From a bacterium (GTDB lineage: Bacteria; UBP4; UBA4092; JAOAEQ01): a DNA stretch of 50,999 bases. This document shows, piece by piece, positions 185 through 50,769 of this stretch. The first letter of the stretch is position 1, and the number at the start of each line of letters is the position of its first letter. The notes under the pieces were generated by a model. The model was not told the origin of the DNA and searched no databases. It worked only from the letters and a program-made list of their open reading frames with translations. The translations under genes were made by a program, and so were the position numbers. The stretch lies in contig JBHGBB010000003.1 in assembly GCA_041946755.1 (NCBI GenBank), positions 1 to 50,999 of the forward strand. Reading direction: 5' to 3'.

Positions 185-242
185 AAAGTACCAAGTATTG
201 ATAACATTAATTTAGTCCTTCGTCCTCGATACTTGGTACTTT
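185..242. repeat. Heptamer-type inverted-repeat hairpin downstream of gspF/pilC (possible terminator)
   Basis: aaagtaccaagtattga ... tcgatacttggtacttt. Confidence 0.55.
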
Positions 243-248
243 AAAAAA

Positions 249-1361
249 CTATTGAATAATTTTAACCAATGAGAAGTAAGGTAAGAATACCGATAACGCG
301 ATAAATAATACCACACTTCCGATAAAGACTACGAGAATCGGTTCGATAATCGAAGTTAAACCATGAATCAAATCATCGAGCTCCCGTTCATAAGATTCAG
401 CAATCCGCTGGAGAACAGTTTCCAATGCTCCGGCTTGCTCTCCGACCGCAATCAGATCTACCGCTAACGGTGGGAAGAAAATCGATTCGCGTAATTGGTC
501 TTCCATCCTACCACCGCCTTCGATTCCAACCCGGGTGCGTTCAATCGCTTCGGCGACGTTCGGACTGCCGACTGAATCTTTAGCAATTTGTAAACTTTCC
601 AAAAGCCCGATTCCAGAGCGTAATAAGGTCGCGGTAGTTCTCGTGAACCGTGCCATGACCAGTTTCGTAAATATCGGACCGATAAGCCACATTCGAAGCC
701 GAATCCGGTCATATAATAACCTCCCGGATTTGGTTCTGCCATAAATCACCAAGGCAACGATAATAATGATTATTAGCGGTACATAAAACGCCCATTGATG
801 GGTAACAAAATTCGATACTTGCAGCGTTAATCTGGTCGGTAACGGTAATGGAACGTTACTTTGGGTTTTCTTCTCGAATAAGGGAACGAAAACCGGGATG
901 ACATACGTTAATAAGAAAATCACTACCCCGAGACATGCTACCAGCGCTACCATCGGATACATCATTGCCGACCGGATTTTGCTGGTTAATGCGATTCGGG
1001 TTTCCAGCATTTCTGCGATCCGGCGTAACGAGCTCTCTAATACACCTCCGGTTTCGCCTACCCGAACCAAGCTAATCATGAGCGGTTTGAATATCCGGGG
1101 ATATTTGGCTAATCCACCGGATAACGTTCCTCCGCCTTCTACATGGTCAGCAATCTCTTTAACGACTTTTCCCAATTTCGGGTTCGTGGTTCGCTCGGTT
1201 AATATCCGTAGACTACGTAGTAAAGGTACCCCAACATCGATCAATAAAGATAATGACCGGGCAAATATCGATAAATCTTTTTGGGATATCGGTCGAGGGA
1301 TTTGGATCGTTAATACCCCTTTTTTATTTGATTTAACCGCCATATCTTCAGCTCCTTTCAT
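249..1361 (-). CDS. Type II secretion/T4P inner-membrane platform protein (GspF/PilC family)
   Basis: Two T2SSF repeats (GETGGVLE, GEQAGALE), KIRSAMMYP, IIEPILVV motifs, three TM segments. Confidence 0.95.
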   Translation of the reverse strand: MKGAEDMAVKSNKKGVLTIQIPRPISQKDLSIFARSLSLLIDVGVPLLRSLRILTERTTNPKLGKVVKEIADHVEGGGTLSGGLAKYPRIFKPLMISLVRVGETGGVLESSLRRIAEMLETRIALTSKIRSAMMYPMVALVACLGVVIFLLTYVIPVFVPLFEKKTQSNVPLPLPTRLTLQVSNFVTHQWAFYVPLIIIIIVALVIYGRTKSGRLLYDRIRLRMWLIGPIFTKLVMARFTRTTATLLRSGIGLLESLQIAKDSVGSPNVAEAIERTRVGIEGGGRMEDQLRESIFFPPLAVDLIAVGEQAGALETVLQRIAESYERELDDLIHGLTSIIEPILVVFIGSVVLFIALSVFLPYFSLVKIIQ

Positions 1362-1425
1362 TAAAGGCAGTCCCTAGTCCTAAATCAATGTCTATAGACG
1401 ACTGCCTATATCAAATCCATTACGC

Positions 1426-3633
1426 CTATAAATATACTGTACGAATAAGTTCGTCGACAGTAGTTATTCCAGCAAGAACTTTCTTTATACAGCTCTCGCG
1501 AATGGTATTCATCCCTTCATTAATCGCGGTCTTCTTAATTTTAACTTCTGATTCTCCTTCGGTAATCATTCCGCGAATAGTATCGGTCATATTTAATACC
1601 TCATACACTCCGGTTCTGCCAATATATCCGGTCCGGAAACAAGTTTCGCATCCTTTGCCACGAGATAATTTAATTTTATCTTTTGCCCCAAGTCCAAGCT
1701 CTTCTTTCAATGCGGTATCCGGTTCGTATTCCTCTTTACAATGCGGACAGATAGTCCGCACTAACCGTTGTGCGATAATTCCAATCACCGAACTGGCAAT
1801 CAGAAATGGTTTAACACCCAAATGAGTTAAGGTTGTTATCGCACTCGGTGCATCATTGGTATGCAAGGTCGCAAAAAGCAGATGACCAGTTAATGCCGCT
1901 CGAACTGCAATCGCTGCGGTTTCAGCATCCCGAATTTCGCCGACCATAAGAATATTCGCATCCTGTCGTAATACTGCTCGTAATCCGCTAGCGAACGTTA
2001 AATCCACTTTCGGATCTACCTGGACCTGGTTTATGCCCGGTAATTGATATTCAATCGGGTCTTCAATAGTAATAATATTTGCCGTCAGAACATTCACTTC
2101 ATTTAATGCGGAATATAAGGTAGTGGTTTTACCGCTGCCGATTGGACCGGTAACCAGTACCATACCATAAGGCCGATGGATCAGATTCCGCATAATTTCC
2201 AGATCCCGCGGTTCATATCCCAATTGCGGTAATCCTTTCAACACCTGACTTTCATCCAGTAATCGAAGAACAATCTTTTCTCCAAAGTGGGTCGGTAACG
2301 TCGCTACCCGGATATCATAATCCTTTCCATCCATCCGGTGAGTGATATGTCCATCTTGCGGCCTGCGGCGTTCGGTGATATCCATATTCGCCAGAACTTT
2401 TATTCGCGATTGCACCGGCAATTGCTGGTCTTCACCCAAAGTCATAACATCATGCAGCATGCCATCGATACGATACCGAATCCGCATTTTGGGGATTTGC
2501 GGTTCTAGATGAATATCGGTTGCTCGAGAGCGAACCGCAGTTTCGATAATCGAACTGACCAGACTAATTATCGAAACATTATCCACTTGTTGCATGAGTT
2601 GGTCTCTACCAACAACCGGCCCTCGGCCAGGAGTCGCCGTAGAAGCAGCGGGGGTACTTTGTGTGGTTTCCTGAACTGCGGGTCGAAGAGTTGTATCGAC
2701 TTTCGCTTCTTTTTCAGTAGCCGCAGCTTGAATCTCTTCTTCGCTAGGAAATAATTTATCAGTCATGATTTTTAACGGTCCTTCCTCCACCAACATCGGT
2801 TTAATTTGGCAGCCGGTTAACAGTGCCATATCATCGATAGACGACATATCCATCGGATCGAGCATCGCTACCCAAAGGGTCTGTTTATCCCTTTTCACCG
2901 GTAGCGCGTTATGCTCACGGATAAATGGTTCCGGCAACAAATGCGCAACTTCAGTCGGTACAATTTCATTCGATAAATCGATATAAGGAATTTCAAGATA
3001 TTTATCGAAAGTATCTTTAATCTGGTCAATGGTTAAATAACCCGAATCTACCAAAATTTTACCTAAAGGAGCATGCTCAGTCTTTTTCTTTTCAAACGCA
3101 GTCTGCAACTTCTCTTGCGTAATCAATCCCCGCTGGAGTAGAATCCGGCCGATAATCTTATCCTGATTCGCTTCCTGTTGATATCGGATAATATCGCTAA
3201 TATTTTTAGGAGTAACATAACGAAGGTTGATAAGAATTCGTTCTAGTGGAAGGCCAGTAGCCTTTTGCTGATCTAGAGCGGTTTTTAATTGTTCGGGAGA
3301 AATAATTCCGGAATCAATCAGGTTGGTTCCTAAATCGGTTTCCTTCGGTTTATATTGTAAGAGCAGATCTTCTAATTCTTCTTCAGTAAATACTCCTTCT
3401 TCAACCAACGATTTCTGCAAATCTTCCGATTGATCGCGTAATACCGGAACCGAAATCTTATAACTGATTAGGTCTTTAAACGTTTCCAGATTAACTTCCT
3501 GCTTAAGGATGGTTAACAGCGATTTATTGGTTTTCTGATATTCTGATTCCAGCCGTTGCGCTTGTTCTTCAGTTAACATCCCCGCTTGCAGCAGGATTTT
3601 ACCGAGTTTAGTTTCTTTTTTCTTTTTTGCCAT
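1426..3633 (-). CDS. GspE/PilB assembly ATPase with multiple N-terminal MshEN-like repeats
   Basis: Walker A GPIGSGKTTT, Asp box TIEDPIE, MVGEIRD, His box TLHTND, CPHC..CETC. Start placed at MAKKKK (3633) because the upstream extension is translated repeat DNA. Confidence 0.95.
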   Translation of the reverse strand: MAKKKKETKLGKILLQAGMLTEEQAQRLESEYQKTNKSLLTILKQEVNLETFKDLISYKISVPVLRDQSEDLQKSLVEEGVFTEEELEDLLLQYKPKETDLGTNLIDSGIISPEQLKTALDQQKATGLPLERILINLRYVTPKNISDIIRYQQEANQDKIIGRILLQRGLITQEKLQTAFEKKKTEHAPLGKILVDSGYLTIDQIKDTFDKYLEIPYIDLSNEIVPTEVAHLLPEPFIREHNALPVKRDKQTLWVAMLDPMDMSSIDDMALLTGCQIKPMLVEEGPLKIMTDKLFPSEEEIQAAATEKEAKVDTTLRPAVQETTQSTPAASTATPGRGPVVGRDQLMQQVDNVSIISLVSSIIETAVRSRATDIHLEPQIPKMRIRYRIDGMLHDVMTLGEDQQLPVQSRIKVLANMDITERRRPQDGHITHRMDGKDYDIRVATLPTHFGEKIVLRLLDESQVLKGLPQLGYEPRDLEIMRNLIHRPYGMVLVTGPIGSGKTTTLYSALNEVNVLTANIITIEDPIEYQLPGINQVQVDPKVDLTFASGLRAVLRQDANILMVGEIRDAETAAIAVRAALTGHLLFATLHTNDAPSAITTLTHLGVKPFLIASSVIGIIAQRLVRTICPHCKEEYEPDTALKEELGLGAKDKIKLSRGKGCETCFRTGYIGRTGVYEVLNMTDTIRGMITEGESEVKIKKTAINEGMNTIRESCIKKVLAGITTVDELIRTVYL

Positions 3634-3641
3634 AGTTTTAA

Positions 3642-3701
3642 ACCAGTTGGCAGTTGCCAGTATGCAGTTTGCAGTTAACTGCCGACTGCGCACTGCAAAC
3701 T
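3642..3701. repeat. Heptamer inverted-repeat hairpin (CAGTTGG/AACTGCC units)
   Basis: cagttgg cagttgc cagtatg cagtttg cagtt / aactgcc gactgcg cactgca aact fills the intergenic gap. Confidence 0.8.
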
Positions 3702-3705
3702 ATTT

Positions 3706-4176
3706 TTATTGTTCTCCCAGGTCTTCCCAATATACTATTGGATTTGGAGTTTTGGAAATATCTACTAATGCAAAAACGGTCCGAGTCGCCCGAATTTCTT
3801 TTTTAACCTGAATCATGCCTTTTGCCGTCACCTGATAGAGATTACCGGAAGCAATCCCATATTTCGATATCGCATCAGTCCAAGTCGAATTTGCTGGCGA
3901 CCACTCAGCGGTATAAACCAAGCTTATATCGCTCGAAATCGGTTCCATTTTCGGAACCAACTCTCCTTCAATTTTTCCAGCTGCGGGTTTGCTCTTGATT
4001 GAGCCAACCGCTGCTTCAACTCCGGATTTAGCTAAATAGAGGGTTTGTAATCCCTCTTTAGTTTGATTTCCCCGCATTAAACTGAAATGCGCATATCCGG
4101 AATAGGATAACGCGACAATAAAGACTATCGCTACCAGACTTAAAATAATTATAAGAACATAACCACGTTGTTGCAT
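3706..4176 (-). CDS. Short PilX/GspK-like minor (pseudo)pilin
   Basis: QRG|YVLII prepilin site without E5, YLAKSGVEAA motif, C-terminal YQVTAKG..IVYWED. Confidence 0.7.
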   Translation of the reverse strand: MQQRGYVLIIILSLVAIVFIVALSYSGYAHFSLMRGNQTKEGLQTLYLAKSGVEAAVGSIKSKPAAGKIEGELVPKMEPISSDISLVYTAEWSPANSTWTDAISKYGIASGNLYQVTAKGMIQVKKEIRATRTVFALVDISKTPNPIVYWEDLGEQ

Positions 4177-4184
4177 AGAAACAA

Positions 4185-4270
4185 TTAAGCGTTAAGAATA
4201 AAGAATTTAAGAAGCGAAAACTAAAACATTTTGTTTTAACCTTTAACTCTTAATTCTTATTTACCTTATT
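4185..4270. repeat. Octamer-unit inverted-repeat hairpin
   Basis: ttaagaataaagaatttaagaa ... ttaactcttaattcttattta. Confidence 0.55.
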
Positions 4271-4274
4271 TCTT

Positions 4275-4988
4275 TTAACTGCCCATTATTTTTACTATGG
4301 TCGATAATTTAAGCGTTCCACCCGGTTCGTTCGGATGCTGAACAGTAACGATAACTCGAACCTGTTTCGGTAAATTCGGGCGATTCATCCATTCTTCAAC
4401 CCAACCCGGACCGGTAGGTAATTGGCTGTCCCAATATCGGAACTGCAATCCATATTTAACGTTTGGTAATCCGATACCTAACCTGCGAATATTGGTCGTA
4501 TCATTGGATTTGGTTTCATCGACATCGGTTATTACCCGATTAATCCGCGATTCTATCTGCCGATTCGCTTCTCCAACTTTACCAACTAAAGAAGTTTCAA
4601 CAGTATACGATATTTTTTGCAATGAAAAGGCTAATTTCCCTTGATTCTGCATTTTGCTGTTTCCAACAATGATAATCAGCGAATCGGAATCGAGGTTTGG
4701 AATATCACCTTTCTTCCCTTGAAACATTACATCGCCATCTTTATCGTTGACAAAGGATACCGCACCGGATATATCGCGAGCGATCTGGTCAAGCGCCAAT
4801 CGCGCTTCTTCCAATCGGTTGATTTGGGTTAATCCTTTTCTCCCGAGTCTGAAGGTGGTAGTATATACTCCATAAATCAAAGAAACGACTACTGCGGCTA
4901 GAACGATAACCACAATTACTTCTACCAGGGTCAAGCCATTGCGATTGCGGATTGCGGATTGCTGATTTCGGATTCTCGGTTGCAACAT
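4275..4988 (-). CDS. GspJ-like minor pseudopilin
   Basis: NG|LTLVEV N-methylation motif, LDQIARDIS, C-terminal WVEEW..LPKQVRV. Confidence 0.85.
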   Translation of the reverse strand: MLQPRIRNQQSAIRNRNGLTLVEVIVVIVLAAVVVSLIYGVYTTTFRLGRKGLTQINRLEEARLALDQIARDISGAVSFVNDKDGDVMFQGKKGDIPNLDSDSLIIIVGNSKMQNQGKLAFSLQKISYTVETSLVGKVGEANRQIESRINRVITDVDETKSNDTTNIRRLGIGLPNVKYGLQFRYWDSQLPTGPGWVEEWMNRPNLPKQVRVIVTVQHPNEPGGTLKLSTIVKIMGS

Positions 4989-4991
4989 AGT

Positions 4992-5510
4992 TTATTTCTG
5001 TTTTAATGAGATTAGATTAACTTTATGATTGCCTTCTTTATCCGACCAATTTACCTCAACTTCTACTTGAACAAAACCTGCGGGAATCCCATCTTTCTCA
5101 TCGAAATATTTTCGTTCCCAGCGGTAGGTAATATCTTGGACCGCTTCTGTTCCCATGTTACCTATTGCGGATTGTGGATTCGATATTTGAGATTTATTTA
5201 TGGGTTTATCTGCCTTAGATGGATTGGGATTCGGGATTTGTCCGCCTAAGGCGGATGCTGCTGGGATTTCTTCCATTTTCTCCTGCGCGAGATATACACC
5301 GTTGGTATATCCCCGGCTAAGGTTATATGCTTCGAATCCGGTTGAGAACAGCATGGTCATACCAACGATCGCAACAGCAGCGATTGCTATTCCAACAATA
5401 ACTTCTACGATAGTTGAGCCGGAAATGCAGGGTGGGGTAACACGATTTCTGCTATATACAAATCTCTTTATTCTTAAACGGAGAAACATAAATTTTATAT
5501 CGATAGTCAA
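4992..5510 (-). CDS. GspI/PilV-like minor pseudopilin (start uncertain)
   Basis: SG|STIVEV motif, LAQEKMEEI, VEVEVNW; carries an in-frame repeat-derived segment. Confidence 0.75.
   Translation of the reverse strand: MTIDIKFMFLRLRIKRFVYSRNRVTPPCISGSTIVEVIVGIAIAAVAIVGMTMLFSTGFEAYNLSRGYTNGVYLAQEKMEEIPAASALGGQIPNPNPSKADKPINKSQISNPQSAIGNMGTEAVQDITYRWERKYFDEKDGIPAGFVQVEVEVNWSDKEGNHKVNLISLKQK
5241..5255. repeat. REP-like palindrome TCCGCCTAAGGCGGA, copy 1 (inside CDS)
   Basis: Same palindrome at 7009-7023 (1 mismatch) and 27602-27616. Confidence 0.75.
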
Positions 5511-5748
5511 ATAAAATACCCTATTTTACTAGCTTTCAGAGTAGGTTATTTATAAATTTACTCTAAAAACTCATCTTTGTCAAGAGGAGAATTGGTTTTT
5601 TAGTTCATACCAGCCATTTTTGGTATATTTTCTTTCAGGGATTGTATTGACTCGGCTGGAATATAATCATCAGTATTTCAGTGCACTATTCCTAATTGAT
5701 AGGGAATATTTAACGTGCATTAAAAATCAAACTGATTATTTCTTTTTT

Positions 5749-6972
5749 TTAAAATCTGCGGTTTTTACCGGCTCTAAATAGAACTCCATTAATAACGGTT
5801 TGGGTAACCCGATATTGATTATCAAGAATAACCAGATTAGCGATTTTATTCGGTGCAATCGTTCCTACTTGATGCGATATACCCAATATCGAAGCCGGGG
5901 TTAAGGTTGCCATCTGGATAGCATCGACGAAAGGTATCTTAGCATATTTAACCGCGTTCGCTACTGCCCGGTCCATAGTTAAAGTACTGCCAGCAATCGT
6001 TCCGTCCGGTCGGGTAACCTTACCGTTTTTAACGATACTTTTCCGGCCATGTCCTTGTGAATAATAGATTCCGTCGGGTAATCCCGCAGGTTTAACCGCA
6101 TCGGTAATCAACGCTATCTTTTTAGGTCCTTTAAGTTTATAAATCAGTTTTATTATCTCCCAATCGAGATGAATTCCATCGCAGATTACCTGAACTGTTA
6201 TCCGATCATCCAATAAACTCGCTAAAGTTGCCCCGGGATTGCGATGATGAATCGGAGTTATCTGGTTGAATATATGGGTAGTATGAGAAATGCCGGCATC
6301 AAATCCTCGTTTCGCTTCGGCAAAGGTTGCAGCGGTATGGCCGATAGCCGCGATTACCCGATGGCTAACAAGGTCTCTGACTAAAGGCACCGAGTTTTTT
6401 AATTCCGGGGCAAGCGTCATCATTTTGAGGTACTGATCCGCTAATGAAAAGATTTTACTTAATAAAAATCGACTTGGTTTATGAATCGATTCTACTGGTA
6501 TTCCACCTTTCCGGTCAGGATTGATAAATGGTCCCTCTAAATGGATACCCAACATTGTAGATTGTAGATTGATGATTTCGGATTTCGAATTTTTTATTCC
6601 GCAATCTGCAATCCGCAATCCGCATTCCATAAACTCGCGGAGCCGTTTTATGGTTGGAATATGGAATTCCGTTGTGGCTAGGAATCCAGTGGTTCCAGCA
6701 GCAATGAGTTTATTGCAGAGCGCTGGTAGTGAAGACGTATCTTCATCCCAAACATCATGACCGAATGCCCCTTGCAGATGCAAATCGATATATCCGGGAA
6801 CAACCCATCTTAGGCGGGCATCGATAATCTTCGCGGATCGAGGTATTGCAATCTTGCTAGTCGGACCAATCCTTAGAATCCGGCGGTTCTTAATAATAAT
6901 GGTACCGCCATCAATGATGTTTAATGGAGTAATGATACAACCGTTGATTATTGCGAGATAACTAGTTTGCAT
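5749..6972 (-). CDS. nagA: N-acetylglucosamine-6-phosphate deacetylase
   Basis: PGYIDLHLQG, GIHLEGPF, TLAPE, IGHTAA, THIFN, DGIH, LITDA, IAGS motifs. Confidence 0.95.
   Translation of the reverse strand: MQTSYLAIINGCIITPLNIIDGGTIIIKNRRILRIGPTSKIAIPRSAKIIDARLRWVVPGYIDLHLQGAFGHDVWDEDTSSLPALCNKLIAAGTTGFLATTEFHIPTIKRLREFMECGLRIADCGIKNSKSEIINLQSTMLGIHLEGPFINPDRKGGIPVESIHKPSRFLLSKIFSLADQYLKMMTLAPELKNSVPLVRDLVSHRVIAAIGHTAATFAEAKRGFDAGISHTTHIFNQITPIHHRNPGATLASLLDDRITVQVICDGIHLDWEIIKLIYKLKGPKKIALITDAVKPAGLPDGIYYSQGHGRKSIVKNGKVTRPDGTIAGSTLTMDRAVANAVKYAKIPFVDAIQMATLTPASILGISHQVGTIAPNKIANLVILDNQYRVTQTVINGVLFRAGKNRRF
6554..6627. repeat. Heptamer inverted-repeat element inserted in frame in nagA
   Basis: attgtag attgtag attgatg atttcgg atttcga / attccgc aatctgc aatccgc aatccgc; translates as ECGLRIADCGIKNSKSEIINLQST. 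Confidence 0.85.
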
Positions 6973-6997
6973 AATGAAAAATAGTATACCATAAAAT

Positions 6998-7178
6998 AAA
7001 ATATCGAATCCGCCTCAGGCGGACGAATATCGAAGTAAGAATTAAAAGCATACCACGAAAACTCGAAATTTATATAACACGAAATAATTATTTCATTTAG
7101 CTTACCTTCGTGATTTCATTTTTTCGTGCTTTCGTGGTTAAGTCTTAGATTTCGGATTCCGACATTCGGATTTCCGCC
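6998..7178. repeat. Nested inverted-repeat elements in divergent promoter region
   Basis: Outer aatatcga../..ttcggatt arms, TCCGCCTCAGGCGGA palindrome, inner accacgaaaactcgaaa../..tttcgtgctttcgtggt arms. Confidence 0.7.
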
Positions 7179-7341
7179 TTAAATGAGTTTGTACTTGATT
7201 ATAAGTGCTTAATTGTGCTATCATTCCCCATCAAGCTGAGATATTTAAATAGCAGTAGAGAGTAGTAAGTGGACCGTAGTTGGGGAAAAATCATTATTCG
7301 CCCTATCAACAGTCTACGACCTACGGATAACGAGCATTTAT

Positions 7342-10947: not shown

Positions 10948-10994
10948 AGGGATAGATATTACTATTGGAATTTGAACCGGTCCGAGAGTAGCTA

Positions 10995-12791: not shown

Positions 12792-12957
12792 AATTCTTTA
12801 TATCGATTATTGAGAAAGCTATTATAGCGGAATTCAGGTTCTCTGAGATAGCGCTATCGGAAGAATATCTTTTCGAGTTTCAATTCCGGTATTCAAGATG
12901 GTTATAGTGACGGAGAAGGTTTAACCACAGGGCTATTATTTAATCTATTTAATAAAC

Positions 12958-14013
12958 TTACCGTCTTTCTCTTTTACGTTTTTCAACAACAACCGATACT
13001 GAAGTTGTCGCCAATCCTGACGGAGTTATTAATCGCAGGATAACCGTTCTGCTTTTTCCTTCCATGGGGAGTGCTAGGATTCCAGAACATTTGAATTTAT
13101 TCGGCTCTGATAATTCATAGACTCGAAATGTGTGTAGCGGTTCCTGTAATTCCGGTGTTTCCTTCGAAAACAGTGGTGGTCTCAAAAGGGGGATTGTTTC
13201 TGGGATAACGGTCCCTAATTCAGGTCGATTATCTTTAACAACGGTAATAGCCAGGTCCGTTTCTGCAATCGGGGTATTATCATTCCAAATCGCAATCATT
13301 TTTAACAGGTATGTTCCTACAGGTAATGGCCTTATCAGATATGCTACTTCTTGTCTATCTCCGGGATATAGTTCAAAATCAGGTTTAGGACTGAATCTGG
13401 AGGCTATATATGGGTCGCTATTCGGCATCGTTGGATTAACAAGTTTTAAAATATATTTTACTTGACCGTACCCTTGTGATTTCAACATCGTCTTCCCGAA
13501 ATTGCGAATTTCGAAAAAAATCAAGGTGTAATTATTGGCTGAGAATCGATCGGTTAATTTCGGGATGAATTTTTTTGAATAGGTACCGGATTTATTGGCT
13601 GGAACGGCACCGAGATAGTTGAAAATAACATCAATATCTTTCGGGAATGCAGAAGTAGTATATACCCATTTGGATAAATATGCCGGATTCTCGAATGCGG
13701 TGGCTTCAACTGCTGCTTGCCCGATTCCGGTTAACTCATATTGTATCTGTAAATTTTCTTTCGGGGACACCGATTTCGGTACATTAAATTGAACAGTAAT
13801 CTGGGCTGCGGTTAAGATAGCCGAATATATTTCTGATGGCATCGCTGGTGGCGGTGGAATTATCCATTTGCTTTTAGCCGGAGTAAATGGTGATGGTTTT
13901 TTAGGCGGTTTAGCTGGGATACTTGTTTCTTTAGCTACCGCAGTAGATATCTGGATGAGTATAACGCTAATAATTAAAAGAGCGGTAATTAGATTACGAT
14001 AACGGTACACCAT
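12958..14013 (-). CDS. Hypothetical exported protein
   Basis: Signal peptide (AVA|K), Pro-rich linker, beta-rich body; co-oriented behind dtd. Confidence 0.7.
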   Translation of the reverse strand: MVYRYRNLITALLIISVILIQISTAVAKETSIPAKPPKKPSPFTPAKSKWIIPPPPAMPSEIYSAILTAAQITVQFNVPKSVSPKENLQIQYELTGIGQAAVEATAFENPAYLSKWVYTTSAFPKDIDVIFNYLGAVPANKSGTYSKKFIPKLTDRFSANNYTLIFFEIRNFGKTMLKSQGYGQVKYILKLVNPTMPNSDPYIASRFSPKPDFELYPGDRQEVAYLIRPLPVGTYLLKMIAIWNDNTPIAETDLAITVVKDNRPELGTVIPETIPLLRPPLFSKETPELQEPLHTFRVYELSEPNKFKCSGILALPMEGKSRTVILRLITPSGLATTSVSVVVEKRKRERR

Positions 14014-14035
14014 ATCTTATTGGCAAGCTACTCTT

Positions 14036-14492: not shown

Positions 14493-14590
14493 AAGGCAGT
14501 CCGAAGTCTAAAGTCCGAAGTCCGAAGTAACATAAGGAAACATCAAGATTTCAGACTTAGGACTAAAGCCTTAGGACTTAGGACTGTTTT
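14493..14590. repeat. AAGTCCG/CTTAGGA-family heptamer hairpin
   Basis: aaggcagtccgaagtctaaagtccgaagtccgaag ... gacttaggactaaagccttaggacttaggactg; overlaps the DUF1844 stop codon. Confidence 0.85.
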
Positions 14591-14925: not shown

Positions 14926-14963
14926 AAGGCAGTCTGAAGTCCGAAGCCCTAAGTCCGAAGTTA
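14926..14963. repeat. AAGTCCG-family repeat arm
   Basis: aaggcagtctgaagtccgaagccctaagtccgaagt. Confidence 0.75.
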
Positions 14964-15921: not shown

Positions 15922-15964
15922 TTAATATAACTTGAGTGATAATATTATTCTCCTAAGTTTATGC

Positions 15965-15998
15965 TTAAGACTTAGGACTTCGGACTTCGGACTGCCTT
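15965..15998. repeat. AAGTCCG-family repeat arm (inverted relative to 14926-14963)
   Basis: taagacttaggacttcggacttcggactgcctt, ending 4 nt before hypA ATG. Confidence 0.75.
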
Positions 15999-16245: not shown

Positions 16246-16370
16246 CCGCCAACCGCAAGAAACTGAAGGAAGAGGGATGACCGCTTCGCTAGGATGAGGG
16301 ATGAATCTTTTACCTCCTTCTTCCCTCCTCCCTCCCCCCTCAGTTTTTCGTTTTTGAGTCTTAGCGGCTA
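16242..16370. repeat. Nested inverted-repeat hairpin between hypA and hypF
   Basis: Outer ttaaccgc../..agcggcta, inner gaaggaagagggatga../..ctccttcttccctcctccctc. Confidence 0.7.
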
Positions 16371-16378
16371 GTTTTTTT

Positions 16379-18712
16379 ATGAAGCATCGTACCCACATCA
16401 TCCTCCAAGGGGTAGTTCAAGGGGTCGGATATCGACCATTCATCCATCGGCTGGCAACCCAATTCGAGGTTACCGGCTGGGTGATGAATACTACCCAAGG
16501 GTTGGTTATCGAGGCGGAAGCAACCCCGGATATTTTAAACCAGTTTATCCACCAAGTTACTACTACCCACCCTCCTTTAGCGCAAGTTGAACAGATTATC
16601 CAAACCGAAATCCCAATAGTTAACGACCAGACTTTTATTGTCCATCCGAGCGAAAAAGCTACCGAACGAGCGGTGCATATCCCCGCAGATATTGCGGTTT
16701 GCGATGAGTGTCTATCCGAGATGCTCAATCCTACCGACCGCAGGTATCGATATCCCTTTATTAATTGCGTTAACTGCGGCGCTCGGTTCACCATCATTCG
16801 CGATATCCCCTATGACCGGAAACAGACCACCATGCAGAAATTTAAACTATGCCCGGAATGCGATACTGAATTCCATAATCTATCGCATCGGAGATATCAT
16901 ACTCAGCCGAATTGCTGTTCGGTTTGCGGACCACACCTAGAATTATTAGATATCAATGGGAAAAAAGTTAGAAGCCAAGACCCGATTGCGGATACCATAG
17001 CTAGATTAGCGCACGGTGAAATTATGGCAATTAAAGGGATCGGCGGATTTCATCTGGTTTGCGATGCCGGAAATAATCAAGCAGTTTTAAAACTCCGGGA
17101 ACGGAAGCATCGGGAAGCGAAACCTTTTGCAATTATGAGTAACGATATTGCTGCTATCCGAGCCTATTGCGAAATATCTGCTGCAGAGGAGGAATTATTA
17201 ATCAGCCCGCAGCGACCGATAGTGTTACTAAGGAAGAAAGGTCCATCAACCGGTATCGCAGAATCGGTCGCCCCGAATTTGAACAATCTCGGGGTAATGC
17301 TGCCGTATGCTCCACTACATCATTTATTATTTCAGAACGCGCCATATCTGGCGTTAGTTATGACCAGCGGTAACCTGAGCGATGAACCGATTGTGATGGA
17401 TAATGCAGTTGCACTAGAAACCTTCCGTGGAATGGTTGATAGCTATTTAATGCATAACCGGGATATCTATAACCGCTGCGATGATTCGATTGCGATGGTG
17501 GTTGATAACGAGCCGATCATTCTCCGGCGGGCACGGGGTTATACTCCCCTTCCGATAAAATTACCCAACCCGGTACCGGATATTCTTGGCTGCGGAAGCG
17601 AATTAAAAAATACCTTCTGTTTAACGAAAAACCAGTTTGCGTTTATCAGCCAGCATATCGGGGATTTGAAAACCGCTGAAGCGTATACCTTCTATCAGGA
17701 AACTATAACTCGATTTGAGAAATTGTTCCGCATCAAACCGGAGATTATCGCGTTCGACTTACATCCGAATTATTTATCGACTCAATATGCGGTCGATAGG
17801 ATATCCAACGCTAAGAAACCGATTCAAGGGATTCAAGTTCAGCATCATCATGCGCATATCGCCAGCTGTATGGCGGAAAATAAGGTTAATGAAAAGGTGA
17901 TCGGTATTGCCATGGATGGAACCGGATATGGGACTGACGGCAATATCTGGGGTTGCGAATTCTTGGTTGCCGATCAAGCATCGTTTGACCGGGCTGGGCA
18001 TCTGGCATATACTCCGTTACCGGGAGGAGATATTGCCGCAGTTGAAACATGGCGGATGGCGATTAGCTATCTCTATTCGATATATCAGGCTGAAATGACC
18101 AAACTACCTCTACCGCTATTGAAAGAGGTTGATGAAGAGAAACTAAACCTAATCTTTCGGATAATTCAGAAGAAAATCAATGCACCGCTATGTTCCAGCG
18201 CCGGGAGATTATTCGATGCGGTCAGTGCGTTACTCGGAATATGCTTGGAATCGAATTATGAAGCGCAAGCGGCAATCGAATTAGAAATGATAGCTGATGC
18301 ATCGGTCACCGGGCATTATGGATTTGATATTTCGGAAGTAGAAGGAAAACAGGTTATCGACTGCAAACAAACCATAGTTGATATAATCGGAGATTTAAGG
18401 AAGAAGATCGATAAATCGATAATTTCCGGGAAGTTTCATAATACCATAGTAGCGTTTTCGATCGAGATGAGCAAAAAGATTCGGGAACAGACCGGATTGA
18501 ATAGTATCGCATTAAGTGGCGGGTCGTTCCAGAATCGGTTAATATTATCTCGGCTGAATAAAGGATTAAAACAAGCCGGATTTAAAGTTTATACGCATCA
18601 TATCATTCCACCAAACGATGCCTGTATCTCGTTTGGACAGGTTATGGTAGCAGAAAATCAAATTCGAAATTCGAATATCGAATATCGAAACAAAAAGATA
18701 ATGAAACAATAA
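16379..18712 (+). CDS. hypF: Carbamoyltransferase HypF
   Basis: GVVQGVGYRPF acylphosphatase domain, CxxC Zn fingers, KGIGGFHL, QHHHAH, DGTGYG, ND..IS.GQ. Confidence 0.98.
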   Translation: MKHRTHIILQGVVQGVGYRPFIHRLATQFEVTGWVMNTTQGLVIEAEATPDILNQFIHQVTTTHPPLAQVEQIIQTEIPIVNDQTFIVHPSEKATERAVHIPADIAVCDECLSEMLNPTDRRYRYPFINCVNCGARFTIIRDIPYDRKQTTMQKFKLCPECDTEFHNLSHRRYHTQPNCCSVCGPHLELLDINGKKVRSQDPIADTIARLAHGEIMAIKGIGGFHLVCDAGNNQAVLKLRERKHREAKPFAIMSNDIAAIRAYCEISAAEEELLISPQRPIVLLRKKGPSTGIAESVAPNLNNLGVMLPYAPLHHLLFQNAPYLALVMTSGNLSDEPIVMDNAVALETFRGMVDSYLMHNRDIYNRCDDSIAMVVDNEPIILRRARGYTPLPIKLPNPVPDILGCGSELKNTFCLTKNQFAFISQHIGDLKTAEAYTFYQETITRFEKLFRIKPEIIAFDLHPNYLSTQYAVDRISNAKKPIQGIQVQHHHAHIASCMAENKVNEKVIGIAMDGTGYGTDGNIWGCEFLVADQASFDRAGHLAYTPLPGGDIAAVETWRMAISYLYSIYQAEMTKLPLPLLKEVDEEKLNLIFRIIQKKINAPLCSSAGRLFDAVSALLGICLESNYEAQAAIELEMIADASVTGHYGFDISEVEGKQVIDCKQTIVDIIGDLRKKIDKSIISGKFHNTIVAFSIEMSKKIREQTGLNSIALSGGSFQNRLILSRLNKGLKQAGFKVYTHHIIPPNDACISFGQVMVAENQIRNSNIEYRNKKIMKQ

Positions 18713-18789
18713 GGCAAATCCAAATAGTTTGTATTCTATTATTATTTTGTTTTATTGTTTCGAATTTCGGATTTCGATATTCGGATTTG
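18659..18789. repeat. ~130-bp AATATCG-family hairpin element, copy 1
   Basis: caaattcgaaattcgaatatcgaatatcgaaacaa ... ttgtttcgaatttcggatttcgatattcggatttg; homologous to 48071-48199. Confidence 0.85.
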
Positions 18790-18796
18790 CATTTAT

Positions 18797-19021
18797 ATGT
18801 GTCTTGGAATACCAGGGAAAATCATTAAACTTGAAGGGCAAACCGCAACCGTTGATATTGAAGGAGTTACCAGGGAGGTATCGTTGCAGTTACTGGATAA
18901 TGTCGCGGTAGGCGATTGGGTGCTCCTTCATTCCGGGTTCGCTATCCAAAAAATGGATGAACAGGAAGCTAAAGAAACTCTAACCCTGCTCCGGCAGGTA
19001 GCCGAACTCGATTCTGAATAA
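18797..19021 (+). CDS. hypC: Hydrogenase maturation chaperone HypC
   Basis: MCLGIPG start, VGDWVLLHSGFAI, EAKETL. Confidence 0.97.
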   Translation: MCLGIPGKIIKLEGQTATVDIEGVTREVSLQLLDNVAVGDWVLLHSGFAIQKMDEQEAKETLTLLRQVAELDSE

Positions 19022-19102
19022 CTAAAGAACATAAGAACGAAAGAACGAAGGAACAATAAGGATTTATTTTGTTTAAGTTCATCATTTCTTCAGTTCCTAA
19101 GT
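19021..19102. repeat. Octamer-unit hairpin after hypC
   Basis: aagaacataagaacgaaagaacgaaggaac ... gttcatcatttcttcagttcctaagtt. Confidence 0.6.
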
Positions 19103-19226
19103 TGATTTTTTAGAGCGGAGAGGTACCAGAGCGGGTCAAAGCCGCTCTGGTTATACCCTAGTAGCGGTATAAATATGGATTTTTAGCGTTACTCTATATA
19201 AATCAATAGACTATATGGGAAAAAAG

Positions 19227-19422
19227 TAGTTAAATGAGTTAAATGAGTTACGACAAAAGAATATGCAGTAGTTCGGTAAGGGTAAAGGAGTGAGTTATGT
19301 AGTTGGGTAAAGTGGTTGGTTTAAAAACAAACTACCCAAGACTAACAACTTAACCCACTACCTTACCTTTACCTAACTCCGAATCTAATTTAGCTTATTC
19401 ACTTATTTAACCTATTTAACTA
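19227..19422. repeat. Nested hairpin: ~110-bp GTAGTT/GGTAAA element inside 9-mer AGTTAAATG arms
   Basis: Inner 19268-19380 homologous to 50442-50553; outer agttaaatgagttaaatgag / cacttatttaacctatttaact. Confidence 0.8.
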
Positions 19423-45939: not shown

Positions 45940-45952
45940 AATAGAAATAAAA

Positions 45953-46036
45953 AAAAGTCCGAAGTCGTAAGTCGTAAGTCCTAAGAGAAACCAAGTATAA
46001 TCTTTCGGACCAAAGACTTAAGACTTAGGACTGCTT
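45953..46036. repeat. AAGTCCG-family heptamer hairpin overlapping wzc stop
   Basis: aagtccgaagtcgtaagtcgtaagtcctaag ... agacttaagacttaggactgctt. Confidence 0.8.
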
Positions 46037-48060
46037 TTTTGCGTAGGATGATTCAAGATAATCCCGCTAATTTTAGGATTTTGGGTTTTTATGATATCGG
46101 TTAATATCGGTTTGAGTTGCGAACCGGTACTAATACCAGCACCAATTATCAGTATTGTTTGTTGTGTCTGTTGCGCAATAAGCTTCCCGAGAGTTGAATG
46201 CGAAAGCGATTGAGTATCGATTAAGATCACGGCATAATTCTGCCCATACTTTTGGAGTAGCTGGTCAAGATTACCCGGATTTTCTAGCATCGATTGCGGT
46301 ATCCGCTCAATGAAATCGAGCCGATCGATAGCGGTGGTTATCGGATTAATTTCGTTACCTGGCGTCGTACCGGTAATATTAAATAGTTCTGCTAAGCGCG
46401 GCGATTTGGGATTACCGTTGATAACCAAAATCTTTCTCCCCTGACCGGCAAACGCGATAGCCAGCGCCGCTGTAATAAAAGTCTTTCCTTCGCTGTTATT
46501 TCGGCTTACCATGGAGATAGATAATGGTTTATCCGTTGCTTTGTTAGCCAAGAGCAGGATAGATAAATCCGAAATAGGTTCATTTATTTCTGGCGACACT
46601 GAGGACCGCGGCGTTATACCGGTATGCGAAAAAGGAATAGTGGCTAAAACCGGTACCGAAGTAATCTCCTGGATTTGTTCCGCGCGATATATTCGGTCAT
46701 CGATATATTCAATGAAATATACCAGAAAGAGACCAAACATAACACCCAATATCGCACCAATGATTAACACCCATTTGCGTTTGGGGAAATAGATATAGGT
46801 TTTTAATACTTTCTTTGCGGTTGGAACGGCTGCAGATGATACTATCACCACATTAGTGACTTCAAGTTTCGCGGCTAATTTCGCATTCTGCAGTTGCGAG
46901 AGTAAGGTATTATACCGATTGCGAAGAGAAGTGGTCACCCGGTCTAACCGGGCTAATTCCATTGCTTTCCGGTCGATCGAATCAAGTTTTTGGGTTACTT
47001 CTTGAATCTGATTGGCTAATTTTTTCTCGGTCGCGGCAGTGGTCACCAATTCGATTTCATTATTCCCATACGATTGGATTAAATTATCGTAATATGCATT
47101 ACGACTTAATGCAGAAGAAGAATAGGTTTTTTCGATTTGCTCTTTAATTTGTTTTTTCGTTTGGTCGATCTGTTCTAATTTCGATTTTACATCCGGATGT
47201 TCATTGGTATACTGGCTGGTTAACTGGGCTAAATCCCGTTCTAACCCATATAAGGTATCTTTTAATAATTTCAAATTCGGATTCGATTCGGTATTAATCG
47301 TTGCCTGCTGGAGTTCCGGTTGTTTGGCTAATTCGGTTTTAATTGCCTGTTTTTTCTCCTGGTCGGTTTTAATGGTTCGCTGAGAAGATAATAAGGCGGA
47401 ATTGAGTGCATCCAATTGATTCGCTAGATTGGTTCGCTGGGTATCTACGGTAGCTAAATGCTCTTGAGTGCTAAACGATTGTTGTTCTTCTTCTGCCTGC
47501 GCCAATTCGTCTTTTACCTTAGGCAATTGTTCCGAGATATAGGCAATGGCTTTTTTCGCATCCCGCTGATTCGTCATCGATTTTAACGCTAAATATCGCT
47601 GGACTAAACCATTGGCGATAGCGACCGCTTCATCCGGTTTAGTGGAAATTCCGCTGATTTCGATGATATCGGTATCTTCAGGATTATTTATCGATACTCC
47701 TATCCCCTGGGTAACGGTGGTAATAAATCCGGGATTGGTGAATTTTACCGGGGAATAGGGTGTTCCGCTGCTATCGGCTAGTTTCAAATCATTAATCAGT
47801 TGTGTGATCAGTTCATAGCTCTGGAGCGTTTCCAGTTCATTCAAGGCCGGAGAGGTATTGCTAATTTTCCCGAGGTTGGATGGCATATCGCCGACAAACT
47901 GCGGTTGCAAATCCTGACCGGTTATCTGCAATGTTGCCGAAATAGAATATATCCGCGGAATGAAACAGATTAATAAAGCGACTAATAGAATTACGGCGAG
48001 TGCTTGGATAAACAGCCATTTCCGACGAACTAATATTTCCCAATATTTACGGATTTCCAT
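46018..48060 (-). CDS. Wzc/GumC-type polysaccharide co-polymerase with degenerate kinase domain
   Basis: Wzz N-terminus, YTNEHPDV coiled coil, TM2, VPVLATIP, SEGKT; no Tyr-rich tail. Confidence 0.88.
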   Translation of the reverse strand: MEIRKYWEILVRRKWLFIQALAVILLVALLICFIPRIYSISATLQITGQDLQPQFVGDMPSNLGKISNTSPALNELETLQSYELITQLINDLKLADSSGTPYSPVKFTNPGFITTVTQGIGVSINNPEDTDIIEISGISTKPDEAVAIANGLVQRYLALKSMTNQRDAKKAIAYISEQLPKVKDELAQAEEEQQSFSTQEHLATVDTQRTNLANQLDALNSALLSSQRTIKTDQEKKQAIKTELAKQPELQQATINTESNPNLKLLKDTLYGLERDLAQLTSQYTNEHPDVKSKLEQIDQTKKQIKEQIEKTYSSSALSRNAYYDNLIQSYGNNEIELVTTAATEKKLANQIQEVTQKLDSIDRKAMELARLDRVTTSLRNRYNTLLSQLQNAKLAAKLEVTNVVIVSSAAVPTAKKVLKTYIYFPKRKWVLIIGAILGVMFGLFLVYFIEYIDDRIYRAEQIQEITSVPVLATIPFSHTGITPRSSVSPEINEPISDLSILLLANKATDKPLSISMVSRNNSEGKTFITAALAIAFAGQGRKILVINGNPKSPRLAELFNITGTTPGNEINPITTAIDRLDFIERIPQSMLENPGNLDQLLQKYGQNYAVILIDTQSLSHSTLGKLIAQQTQQTILIIGAGISTGSQLKPILTDIIKTQNPKISGIILNHPTQKSSPKS

Positions 48061-48070
48061 AAATTAAAAG

Positions 48071-48199
48071 CAAATCCGAATATCGAATGTCGAATATCGA
48101 AACAAGAAGATTAATGAAACAATAATGCAAACTTGGTTGATTTGCTTATTTTCTTTTTGTTTGATTGTTTCGAATTTCGGATTGTGGTATTCGAATTTG
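48071..48199. repeat. ~130-bp AATATCG-family hairpin element, copy 2
   Basis: Homologous to 18659-18789 including the spacer aatgaaacaataa.gcaaa. Confidence 0.85.
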
Positions 48200-49399
48200 G
48201 TTCAAAGCTTTGTATAAATCAAAGATATGCGGAGCGCAGCCGAGAACCACATTCGGTTTGGCATTCCGGATTTTCTCTTGTGCGAATAAGTTAACCGCGC
48301 AGTTGCCGAACAGCCAGATATCGCCAGTCCATTTATTGATATTAGGTACATTTGGCATCGGGATTCCGACATAAACGGTTATCGGGTTTATGGCCTCGAG
48401 TTTGTTCTCATGATGCAGTTTATCGAGGGTATGCCGCAATGCTGATAAACACCCGTTACATGCGCCGCCTTCAATCACCGTAACATTTTTAAATACGCCG
48501 ACACTGCTAATAATCGGCCGTTTAAAATTCCGTTTAACCTGGTTCACGGGAGTTCCAAGAACTTTTATGTTGGCTATTTTAGCTACTCCCAGGTTCGATT
48601 GGGCAGCAACCCGATTCGTGGCCACTTCTTCCGGCTCGATTCCCATTACTATCGTTCCGATAGTATCTACGGCTACCGGATCGGTGCCAGCAATAAGGGT
48701 ATTCATATCCGGAATGGTTTTCCCGGATAATGGCGCCTGACCTTCCATCGCCATGATTCCATCGACTATCGTTAATTGCGGCCGAATAGCGCGAAGGACA
48801 TCAACTACTTTAAACGCGACATCGTTCCGGTGGAACATCAGCCGTTCATGATCATAAATCAAACCATGCAGATTCTTTATCCCTAAGGTTACCAGGGTAT
48901 GCATATGGGTTTTCATTTTCGGTAGGTTGATGAACACTTCTGCATCTAGAACCGGTTTCGGTAAATCCATCTCTTGCATAACGGTAGCATGCGGAACCTT
49001 GATTCGCATTGCTGGAGATTCATCCAGATATACCGGTTTCGCCCCATATTTCGGGAGCGATTTATCTAATCCGGCTAATTTAAACGCTTCCCGGGCGGCT
49101 AGTTGATATCCCGGATTTTCGCCTACCTGAATCTGTTTCGCACCGGCGTCATGGAGTAATCGGACGAGACCGAGAATAACCCGGACATCGGTAGTTATCG
49201 CCGGTAACTCTTTCGGATTCGGGCGTACCAGGTTCGGTTTTATAAATACCGTTTTATTCTTGACCAATTTCTGCAGCGTTACGGTATACCCAATCACTTC
49301 ATCCAGCATGGATTGGATTATTGATAAGCTCTTTTCGGTATATTTCGCCGGAGTTTCCGGTATATTCTTTCGATAGGTGATTCCAATAATAGATTGCAT
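48146..49399 (-). CDS. DUF362 domain protein with C-terminal Cys-containing domain
   Basis: IKPNLV, NLPKMKTH, TLGIKNL.G, DGI.AMEG, DPVAVD; CNGC, GNC, GCAP. Confidence 0.85.
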   Translation of the reverse strand: MQSIIGITYRKNIPETPAKYTEKSLSIIQSMLDEVIGYTVTLQKLVKNKTVFIKPNLVRPNPKELPAITTDVRVILGLVRLLHDAGAKQIQVGENPGYQLAAREAFKLAGLDKSLPKYGAKPVYLDESPAMRIKVPHATVMQEMDLPKPVLDAEVFINLPKMKTHMHTLVTLGIKNLHGLIYDHERLMFHRNDVAFKVVDVLRAIRPQLTIVDGIMAMEGQAPLSGKTIPDMNTLIAGTDPVAVDTIGTIVMGIEPEEVATNRVAAQSNLGVAKIANIKVLGTPVNQVKRNFKRPIISSVGVFKNVTVIEGGACNGCLSALRHTLDKLHHENKLEAINPITVYVGIPMPNVPNINKWTGDIWLFGNCAVNLFAQEKIRNAKPNVVLGCAPHIFDLYKALNQIRIPQSEIRNNQTKRK

Positions 49400-50410: not shown

Positions 50411-50441
50411 AGTTATCCCCCGCAGAATGTTATATAAAATC

Positions 50442-50553
50442 GTAGTTGGGTAAAGGTAAAGTAGTGAGTTAAGTAGTTAGTTGTGGGTCGTTAGTTTTTT
50501 ATTAACCACTTTACCGGACAACTTAACCCACTTCCTAACCCTAACCTAACCAC
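50442..50553. repeat. ~110-bp GTAGTT/GGTAAA hairpin element, copy 2
   Basis: gtagttgggtaaaggtaaagtagtgagtta ... acaacttaacccact..cctaac; homologous to 19268-19380. Confidence 0.8.
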
Positions 50554-50672
50554 TAAACCTAGGTGTTTAATAATGGATACATCCAGTTAGATATATAAGG
50601 TCTAACTGGATTCATATACTCTATTAGAACTATTTAGGATATACCAATTAGGCGGGAATTGTCAAATACTCC

Positions 50673-50769
50673 TTAACCGCAGAGAACGCCGAGAAAGCGC
50701 AAAGAACACTGAGAATTATATAGCTTTCCTCTGCGATCTCAGCGGATTCTCTGCGGTCTCTGCGGTTAA
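50673..50769. repeat. AACCGCAGAG/CTCTGCGGTT 9-mer-unit hairpin element
   Basis: ttaaccgcagagaacgccgag ... ctctgcggtctctgcggttaa; its end contains the stop codon of the upstream ORF. Confidence 0.85.

Follow-up and report, generated by a model that had tools for sequence, protein, structure and literature searches.

What are the hairpins of short tandem units that fill the gene junctions of a soil bacterium, and how did they come to lie there? The question is raised by the window studied here, which is the whole stretch of 50,999 nt analysed from one contig of a soil metagenome-assembled genome (3.9 Mb, 362 contigs, 41% GC; hereafter G000). An earlier reading of the same DNA, the original prediction, had described about 20 elements of one common architecture in this window, and a junction-by-junction reading found 20 of them, 15 two-armed hairpins and 5 lone arrays, including all eight units that had been named. 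Each arm is a short tandem array, built in most cases from 7-nt units and in some from units of 8-10 nt, and in its complete form the family is a small cassette whose inverted arrays enclose either a TIGR02436 gene (Avd-like four-helix-bundle protein, heptamer arms) or a TIGR04256 gene (GxxExxY protein, arms of 8-10-nt units). Taken as a whole, we consider it rather probable that the window elements are gene-less members of this repeat-armed cassette family which have settled in tight gene junctions; that they are gene-less relatives of the cassettes is well supported, and we infer their movement and a translational coupling across them.

Two puzzles meet in this genome. Since 2007 it has been recognized that, in many bacterial genomes, no long simple repeats are as over-represented as those of heptanucleotides, and to our knowledge the sole explanation given so far for their excess is a guess at polymerase slippage; in cyanobacteria such as Calothrix and Nostoc, short tandemly repeated repetitive (STRR) sequences received their name and were reported in 1990. 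The four-helix-bundle ("23S rRNA intervening-sequence") and GxxExxY proteins are, on their side, large orphan families. G000 joins both puzzles, with about 20 unit families present as hundreds of gene-less hairpins and around 18 cassettes bearing those same arms.

The tie to these two gene families was studied in the whole genome, where TIGR02436 gave 14 matches at 13 loci and TIGR04256 gave 5, their flanking arms being counted by eye. Inverted tandem arrays flanked 11 of the 13 four-helix-bundle loci on both sides, one further locus had an array on the sole side covered by its contig, and the weakest match (27.8 bits) had no flanking array; a script that pairs arrays also recovered eight of the array-flanked loci. 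All five GxxExxY genes were located between inverted arms of 8-10-nt units, of the types found in the window at 7052-7138 and 50673-50769. The four-helix-bundle arms are made of AAGTCAG, AAGTACC, AATCCGC/AAATCCG, AAATCCA, AAATTCC, AAGTCCT, AAATGCT and GGTWAAG units, those of GxxExxY of ACCACGAA and AACCRCAGAG, and the arm types AAGTCCT, AAGTACC, AATCCGC/AAATCCG, GGTWAAG, ACCACGAA and AACCGCAGAG are common to window elements and cassette genes. Six of the eight commonest units flank a four-helix-bundle gene. The spacers of inverted array pairs were bimodal (0-40 nt in 41 of 83, 300-500 nt in 11, none at 200-300 nt), so the forms with and without a gene are separate states rather than successive stages of decay. 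Since the Pfam/NCBIfam search found no TIGR02436 or TIGR04256 gene inside any window element, these were classed as gene-less relatives and not as cassettes. Of the partner genes suggested by the original prediction, the four-helix-bundle and GxxExxY genes stood, and those for REP-associated tyrosine transposases (RAYT) did not: none of the three Y1-transposase (PF01797, RAYT-like) genes of the genome (C209:3091-3429, C313:8601-8945, C112:30273-30602) had tandem arrays within 600 nt, and they were flanked instead by non-periodic GC-rich palindromes, e.g. GCGAGAGTAGAACTCTCGC and GCGGTAGTTCTACTACCGC, which are a separate repeat system in G000, similar to repetitive extragenic palindromic (REP) sequences.

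Cassettes of this kind are also found outside the lineage. Homologues of two G000 four-helix-bundle proteins were present in 69 and 80 of 401 sampled genomes, and among the best 29 non-self loci of each protein, inverted periodic arms were detected in other phyla at 20 and 22 loci, respectively, versus 4 and 0 of 29 in a direct-orientation control. Unit similarity was highest for the closest homologues, and the hosts ranged from 33 to 65% GC. Of 151 genomes, 7 contained the sequence (AATCCGC)x3 with at most one mismatch, and five of these 7 belong to unrelated families; the reversed control gave a single match. Metagenome contigs of GC-rich soil organisms piled up on the window arrays. In the soil metagenome that contains this organism, word depth reached 73-511 at AATCCGC/AATATCG arrays (4670-5336, 6004-6670 and 18677-19343) versus a baseline around 11, and the reads lying deep on these arrays had foreign, GC-rich flanks; many other organisms in that soil bear AATCCGC/AATATCG arrays. 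A separate observation was made on contig C1, where two adjacent small genes (27765-28877), coding for a 139-aa protein and a 151-aa membrane-like protein, lie between alternating inverted TTTTCGTG/CACGAAA arrays; the cassette position is therefore open to genes beyond TIGR02436 and TIGR04256.

A bolder form of the cassette reading would pair each unit family, as cognate nucleic-acid target, with a single clade of four-helix-bundle or GxxExxY (nuclease-fold) proteins, which would write, spread or maintain the arrays in trans and travel between phyla as arm-gene-arm cassettes. We regard it as conceivable and on balance doubtful. As estimated from the unit counts, the one-to-one match between cassettes and unit families is indistinguishable from abundance-weighted sampling, and in G001, the only other genome of the same family, the unit carried by the single cassette does not clearly belong to the most abundant array family, so that the cognate-protein idea gains nothing there. 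If true, it would represent a new kind of protein-guided repeat system and would explain the heptanucleotide excess, the origin of 23S rRNA intervening sequences (IVS) that carry an open reading frame (ORF), and the genes without a Shine-Dalgarno (SD) motif behind repeats.

The elements are far more abundant than expected by chance. A strict scan of the window (palindrome score of at least 9, both arms periodic, lag 6-10) detected 9 hairpins, whereas ten simulated 51-kb windows (third-order Markov) gave 0, 1, 1, 1, 0, 0, 0, 4, 0 and 0 (mean 0.7); the count depends on the threshold, as an earlier and stricter version of the scan gave 4 hairpins only. In the genome-wide scan of tandem and inverted repeats that had been proposed, 907 period-7, 360 period-8 and 166 period-14 arrays were found, versus 110, 125 and 22, respectively, in a third-order Markov genome, and an inverted partner at no more than 110 nt accompanied 218 of 1995 merged arrays versus 0 of 594 in the simulation. 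Inverted pairs taken from the consensus units of Tandem Repeats Finder (TRF) alone numbered 71, a criterion that was too strict, and the set of 150 hairpin loci used below is a lower bound, as its filter passed only 4 of the 15 hairpins of the window.

The units of different elements, described at first as unrelated, turned out to belong to a limited set. Across 895 period-7 arrays there are 191 canonical units, and ten of them make up 364 arrays (AAATCCG 52, AAGTCCT 52, AAATGCT 48, AAGTCAG 46, AAGTACC 35, AATATCG 33, AATCCGC 30, AAGTCCG 25, ACAGTAG 22 and AAGACTT 21), and the units group into about 20 recurrent families genome-wide, with one-base differences between neighbouring families (AAGTCCG/AAGTCCT; AAATCCG/AATCCGC/AAATTCG/AATATCG). 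Within the AAGTCCK family, end motifs (..GGCAGTCC ... GGACTGCC..) are common to dozens of loci, and the hairpin centre with 12 nt to each side was matched elsewhere in the genome for 90 of the 150 loci. The composite element of around 140 nt at 18654-18794 has 8 other near-full-length copies in G000 and 2 in G001, with arms and arm-proximal sequence conserved and the centre variable. Whole elements thus recur as diverged copies in both genomes, and heptamer arrays are also present in unrelated phyla. The spacing of successive mismatches in the stems showed a faint bump at 7, too slight to claim periodic mismatches.

The comparison with relatives was made in a thinly sampled lineage, where the family counts one further genome (G001) and the class three, and the relatives compared share 51-82% protein identity, too distant for fresh insertions to show; a search of genome contigs with the dtd protein gave no relative nearer than 58% identity. 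Positions 249-14921 of the window are collinear with one G001 contig. Empty sites, as anticipated by the original prediction, were found at the junction between the DUF1844 gene and dtd, which is an ATGA overlap in G001 and a 15-nt spacer in the relative L255, versus 88 nt here, and in the metagenome relative L253 the junction holds a shorter hairpin of the same type as here. The array upstream of the DUF1844 gene (14926..14961) is absent from G001 and from the metagenome relatives L252, L253 and L255. At other sites the element is of another kind: the junction of the type II secretion system (T2SS) E and F genes has in G001 a hairpin of another unit family (AAATCCG/AATATCG), that between the 156-aa gene and T2SS E has a lone AATATCG-type array only, and the hairpin downstream of T2SS F keeps the AAGTACC unit at the orthologous site. 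The in-frame hairpin stretch of nagA codes for 25 residues here versus 15 in the G001 orthologue, in a protein that is otherwise well conserved. Among 36 informative orthologous junctions, G001 had some array in 13 and a matching unit in 3, versus an array at 54 of 367 array-free controls. The two genomes also differ in density: G000 contains 13 cassettes, with 229 period-7 arrays per Mb, and G001 a single cassette, formed by its one four-helix-bundle gene, with 77 arrays per Mb. The elements are a dispersed, rapidly turning-over population of many families, in which relatives differ by gain, loss, change of size and replacement at individual sites.

Under the cassette reading, the cassette proteins, acting in trans, or recombination within a unit family would spread or renew the gene-less copies, and the arrays would then lengthen or shorten via slippage. 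In agreement with the absence of a transposase claimed for the window, none of its 40 ORFs matched a transposase family (Pfam, E<=1e-5). Mobilization in trans, also put forward at first, did not fare as well, and several observations weigh against it. No parent insertion sequence or transposase was found for the elements, no target-site duplication was seen at the clean empty site between the DUF1844 gene and dtd relative to G001 (where divergence is high), no movement event was seen among relatives so distant, and no insertion or 7-nt length polymorphism was detected along window positions 1-20000 in the one metagenome containing the organism (around 11x, contigs only), so that movement is what we infer and not what we saw. 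Loops of 16 nt or longer are nearly all unique (3 of 42 matched elsewhere), and the copies of the composite share only arms and arm-proximal sequence; therefore, local renewal of arms also fits, not just copy-and-paste. The leader of the prepilin-like protein is equally long in G001 (18 residues before the G) without any array, which looks like overwriting and not insertion. Moreover, the G001 gap was within 30 nt of the G000 gap in 20 of the 36 junctions, with differing content, and G001 junctions orthologous to hairpins showed no more structure than controls did (z<-2 in 12 of 33 cases versus 20 of 90 controls, Mann-Whitney p 0.38). The joints among reads on positions 1-20000 are cross-matches between arrays.

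Part of these observations would be explained if the elements were simple sequence repeats born locally, with slippage in place and hairpins formed by template switching between arms, requiring neither movement nor any protein. Heptamer slippage has already been proposed (Mrazek 2007, as quoted in the available text of PMC4692102 and PMC4679880), most arrays lack an inverted partner, the long loops are unique, the prepilin leader did not change in length, and the DUF1844-dtd hairpin differs from that of L253 mainly in unit number. By contrast, random slippage predicts arbitrary units, and not a genome in which ten of them account for so many arrays; neither does it account for heptamer arrays shared with unrelated phyla of 58-65% GC, for the non-periodic arm-proximal sequence and the end motifs GGCAGTCC...GGACTGCC shared between elements, or for two specific gene families bracketed by arrays. 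We thus consider a purely local origin improbable.

The position of the elements relative to genes was analyzed with our own simple caller, based on ORFs and codon usage. The 150 hairpins were located at co-directional junctions (113), in convergent (10) and divergent (10) gaps, inside ORFs (7) and at contig ends (10), with 143 outside ORF interiors according to these gene calls. The co-directional share (113 of 133) is close to that of all junctions of the genome (2221 of 2716), so co-directionality itself is not enriched. What is enriched is the fit to stop and start codons, as had been predicted. The upstream stop lies within the stem in 50 of the 113 co-directional junctions, and between 30 nt inside and 10 nt before the stem in 75. 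The start was taken as the first in-frame one after the hairpin, which shortens the stem-to-start distances, and it lies at no more than 15 nt from the stem end in 62 of the 113. The stop-start spacer left over was of 25 nt or less in 63 of 113, versus 30% of 1590 array-free junctions (p 2e-8) and 2.2% expected under per-nucleotide random placement on intergenic DNA. An SD-like 4-mer precedes 5.6% (3/54) of the starts within 15 nt of a stem, versus 32.7% genome-wide and 42% where the start is farther than 15 nt, and a short A/U-rich stretch precedes the SD-poor starts. Two outcomes had been named beforehand as speaking against the prediction, a lack of enrichment at these boundaries and identical hairpins in all relatives; the boundaries are enriched, and the hairpins differ between relatives.

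These data are consistent with copies persisting in tight co-directional junctions because the stem would re-join the upstream stop and the downstream start. A terminating ribosome would melt the stem base and free the SD-less, A/U-rich start region, a translational coupling of the RNA-unfolding type (PMC12548453, in its available text), in such a way that operon expression would survive the insertion, and the placement would be mainly a survivorship pattern, not a purpose-built device. Hairpin-mediated coupling has precedents in genes VII-IX of phage f1 and in rpmI-rplT, according to the available part of the same review (PMC12548453). Against an action at the RNA level, G.U wobbles numbered 195 in the sense and 196 in the antisense orientation, so the pairing is not kept specifically in the transcript. 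ORFs of the relay type known from mycobacterial interspersed repetitive units (MIRUs) were not enriched (21 of 113 junctions versus 131 of 655 controls, Fisher p 0.80), and none spanned from the upstream stop to the next start among the 113 junctions. The co-option for translational coupling or mRNA processing suggested at the outset is not directly supported.

The same placement would be expected from a purpose-built post-transcriptional device, in which the hairpins, or a repeat-binding protein, are selected to couple, tune or process operon translation, as proposed for the TAACTGA repeats of Beggiatoaceae. The stem base bringing stop and start together, the depletion of SD motifs at adjacent starts and an RNase III gene (rnc) present in the genome speak in its favour, and so does a published parallel, as TAACTGA arrays end 1 nt before SD-less start codons (PMC4679880, available text). 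Apart from the lack of a sense-strand excess of G.U pairs, it is opposed by stems that are just 78% Watson-Crick at median, by the two-thirds of orthologous G001 junctions that are array-free, including a DUF1844-dtd pair coupled via a plain ATGA overlap, by 27 of the 150 elements lying in convergent or divergent gaps or inside ORFs, and by a co-directional share that simply follows that of the genome. A device of this kind therefore appears unlikely.

REP sequences and bacterial interspersed mosaic elements (BIMEs), REP doublets forming hairpins (REPINs) with their RAYT, and miniature inverted-repeat transposable elements (MITEs) such as Correia elements are abundant gene-less intergenic palindromes, presumably moved in trans. 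That the elements are ordinary palindromes of the REP/BIME type served by a RAYT, or intrinsic terminators, is very unlikely: a few members are terminator-like (185-242, with a T-run and conserved in G001, and 27306-27372, after a gene end) and three RAYT-like genes exist, but a T-rich sense-strand tail follows 21 of 113 stems versus an A-run before 35, the stems are of considerable length (median 38.5 columns) and rich in AT (arm GC 0.31), none of 18 terminator-like sites in 1-20000 (shuffle expectation 19.9) is a tandem-unit hairpin, and the palindromes beside the RAYT-like genes are different ones. The arms of REP/BIME, REPIN and Correia elements are not tandem arrays, whereas those of the elements described here are.

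Several features of these elements have been published before: the heptamer class, the nearness to SD-less starts, occasional inverted pairs and the hairpin-enclosed genes of 23S rRNA (PMC4692102, PMC4679880 and PMC4990558). The comparisons that follow refer to the available portions of these papers. Long simple sequence repeats (LSSRs) and STRR sequences are like the elements described here in their tandem 7-nt units, mostly intergenic position and high frequency, and are sporadic among bacteria (PMC4692102, PMC4679880); unlike them, as they are described there, the present ones show many coexisting unit families, a large proportion of arrays paired as inverted arms of one hairpin, and two gene families enclosed by such arms. 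The TAACTGA repeats of marine Beggiatoaceae, cyanobacteria and Bacteroidetes (MacGregor 2015, PMC4679880) form arrays that end near SD-less starts, as the hairpins here end close to starts without a ribosome-binding site; some of those arrays reach into the end of the ORF before them, their distribution is patchy across phyla, and relatives have shorter, repeat-free gaps. In that text, however, a single unit is described, nearly always as direct repeats (1 inverted among 170 sets), with no link to a cassette, whereas the elements here are two-armed hairpins of about 20 unit families, and TAACTGA is not among the commonest of the 191 units. The GGGAATC/GGGGAYT heptamers of Xanthomonas and Nostoc (Rehm et al. 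2015, PMC4692102) are intergenic, include some inverted pairs capable of forming stem-loops, and make arrays whose length and sequence differ between close relatives; those units are G-rich and quadruplex-forming, whereas the present ones are A/T-rich.

In the 23S rRNA IVS of Coxiella burnetii (with S23p) and Leptospira, a long inverted-repeat stem encloses a gene of the TIGR02436 protein family, RNase III cuts the stem, and the sporadic distribution suggests horizontal transfer (PMC4990558, available text). The G000 cassettes share this layout, but outside rRNA, and unlike the IVS the window elements are gene-less and lie between protein-coding genes. MIRUs are, like the elements here, small dispersed repeats settled at gene junctions, in their case operon junctions of mycobacteria, with little harm to expression (PMC12548453, available text), but they contain a relay ORF, coupled at -4 nt to the gene that follows, and ORFs of this kind are not enriched in G000. 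No published tie between heptamer arrays and four-helix-bundle or GxxExxY genes was found in a search outside of which most subscription journals lay.

The elements have consequences for how such genomes are read. They displace ribosome-binding sites, extend or interrupt reading frames, and break assemblies; arrays are read as protein in the nagA hairpin, the prepilin leader and the C-terminal ends of the DUF1844 and DUF362 products. Genomes in which such elements abound will therefore be handled wrongly by gene-calling and binning software. Many contigs of G000 end inside tandem arrays (e.g. C32, C121, C176, C229, C253, C66 and C166), and 10 of the 150 hairpin loci touch a contig end. The repeat elements are thus one cause of the fragmented assembly, and the counts of arrays and cassettes are underestimates.

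The window elements are listed in Table 1. TRF gave 45 rows on the window, with period 7 dominant, and an inverted-repeat search paired the arms 18654-18711/18737-18794, 50673-50713/50729-50769, 48068-48105/48165-48202, 7052-7083/7107-7138 and 185-201/226-242, as well as those within 3652-3701. RNA folding of eight elements gave z from -2.3 to -6.9. At gathering score, Rfam 15 matched none of the elements, its sole match in the window being a tRNA-Gly (27483-27555). Pfam and NCBIfam name most of the approximately 40 window genes, which include type II secretion/type IV pilus genes, hypA/F/C/D, nagA, dtd, an NrdD-like reductase, a sigma-54 activator, ParAB and polysaccharide export.

Table 1. 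Tandem-unit elements of the window (T2SS, type II secretion system; z, RNA folding compared with dinucleotide shuffles).
Position	Strand	Element	Detection and fold	Context
185..242		AAGTACC-unit hairpin	17-nt arms, 94% complementary; z -4.48	directly downstream of T2SS protein F gene (249-1361, minus strand); sense-strand T-run after element
1363..1407		degenerate AAGTCCT-type hairpin (AAAGGCAGTCC...GACTGCCT)	junction reading	fills gap from T2SS E ATPase stop to T2SS F start
3644..3701		GCAGTTN/CAGTTGG-unit hairpin	TRF, inverted-repeat search, strict scan; z -3.26	between stop of 156-aa gene (3706) and T2SS E ATPase start (3633)
4179..4275		TTAAGAA-unit hairpin	strict scan; z -2.26, weakest fold	between prepilin-like gene and 156-aa gene
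4938..4974	-	lone (CCGCAAT)n array	TRF	codes leader peptide of prepilin-like protein (N_methyl motif at residues 14-39)
6554..6628	-	heptamer hairpin (ATTGTAG/GATTTCG...TCCGCAA)	TRF, strict scan	in frame inside nagA (5749-6972, minus strand; TIGR00221 match 314 bits, cut-off 225.65)
7052..7138		8-nt-unit hairpin (ACCACGAA.../...TTCGTGGT)	inverted-repeat search	divergent intergenic region; arm type recurs around GxxExxY gene, contig C49
7147..7176		lone ATTTCGG-type array		adjoins element 7052..7138
14498..14585		AAGTCCK-unit hairpin	TRF, strict scan; z -4.32	between DUF1844 gene and dtd; one arm holds DUF1844 stop (14571-14573), dtd ATG (14488) 9 nt past other arm
14926..14961		lone AAGTCCK array	TRF	ends 4 nt before DUF1844 start (GACTGCCTTATTT ATG)
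15951..15993		AAGTCCK array (half hairpin)	TRF	ends 9 nt before hypA start (16003)
16275..16341		GAGGGAT/CCTCCCT hairpin	TRF	between hypA and hypF
18654..18794		composite ~140-nt hairpin, AATATCG/AAATTCG arms	inverted-repeat search; z -5.30	between hypF and hypC; hypF stop within stem, hypC ATG 2 nt past stem
19017..19107		8-nt-unit (AAGAACGA) hairpin	TRF, strict scan	begins at hypC stop
19226..19421		long hairpin, AGTTAAATG arms, with nested GGTWAAG-type hairpin	TRF	ends 13 nt before hypD; inner arm type recurs beside four-helix-bundle gene, contig C299
27306..27372		TAGAAGA run and hairpin	TRF, inverted-repeat search, strict scan; weakest member, terminator-like	after stop of large cysteine-protease gene
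45949..46039		AAGTCCK/AAGTCGT hairpin	TRF, strict scan; z -6.09	GNVR-domain gene stop (46018-46020) within stem; flippase-like gene ATG (45939) 9 nt past stem
48066..48202		second composite AATATCG-armed copy	inverted-repeat search; 80% identical to 18654-18794	right arm codes last codons of DUF362 gene
50443..50563		GGTWARG-type long hairpin	TRF	upstream of polysaccharide-export gene
50673..50769		9-10-nt-unit hairpin (AACCGCAGAG...CTCTGCGGTT)	TRF, inverted-repeat search, strict scan; z -6.94	arm type recurs around GxxExxY genes, contigs C135, C225, C320

Some minor observations were made along the window. The hypA ORF (16003-16245) codes for 80 aa only, covering positions 1-69 of the 112-position Pfam model, and is directly followed by the GAGGGAT/CCTCCCT hairpin and then by hypF, in a cluster without hypB; HypA may have lost its C-terminal part at this element.

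A separate GC-rich mini-hairpin, TCCGCCTNAGGCGGA, is present in the window at 7008-7028 and 27604-27622 and on contigs C135, C2, C224, C297 and C57, and on these contigs GGATTTTGAAATTTGACATT, a sequence that includes TTGACA, often comes next; both together may constitute a terminator-plus-promoter module. Finally, a paralogous tandem pair of genes (21123-23687 and 23939-27292) codes for proteins that each combine a papain-family cysteine protease with a lectin-like domain, one of them also with CARDB.

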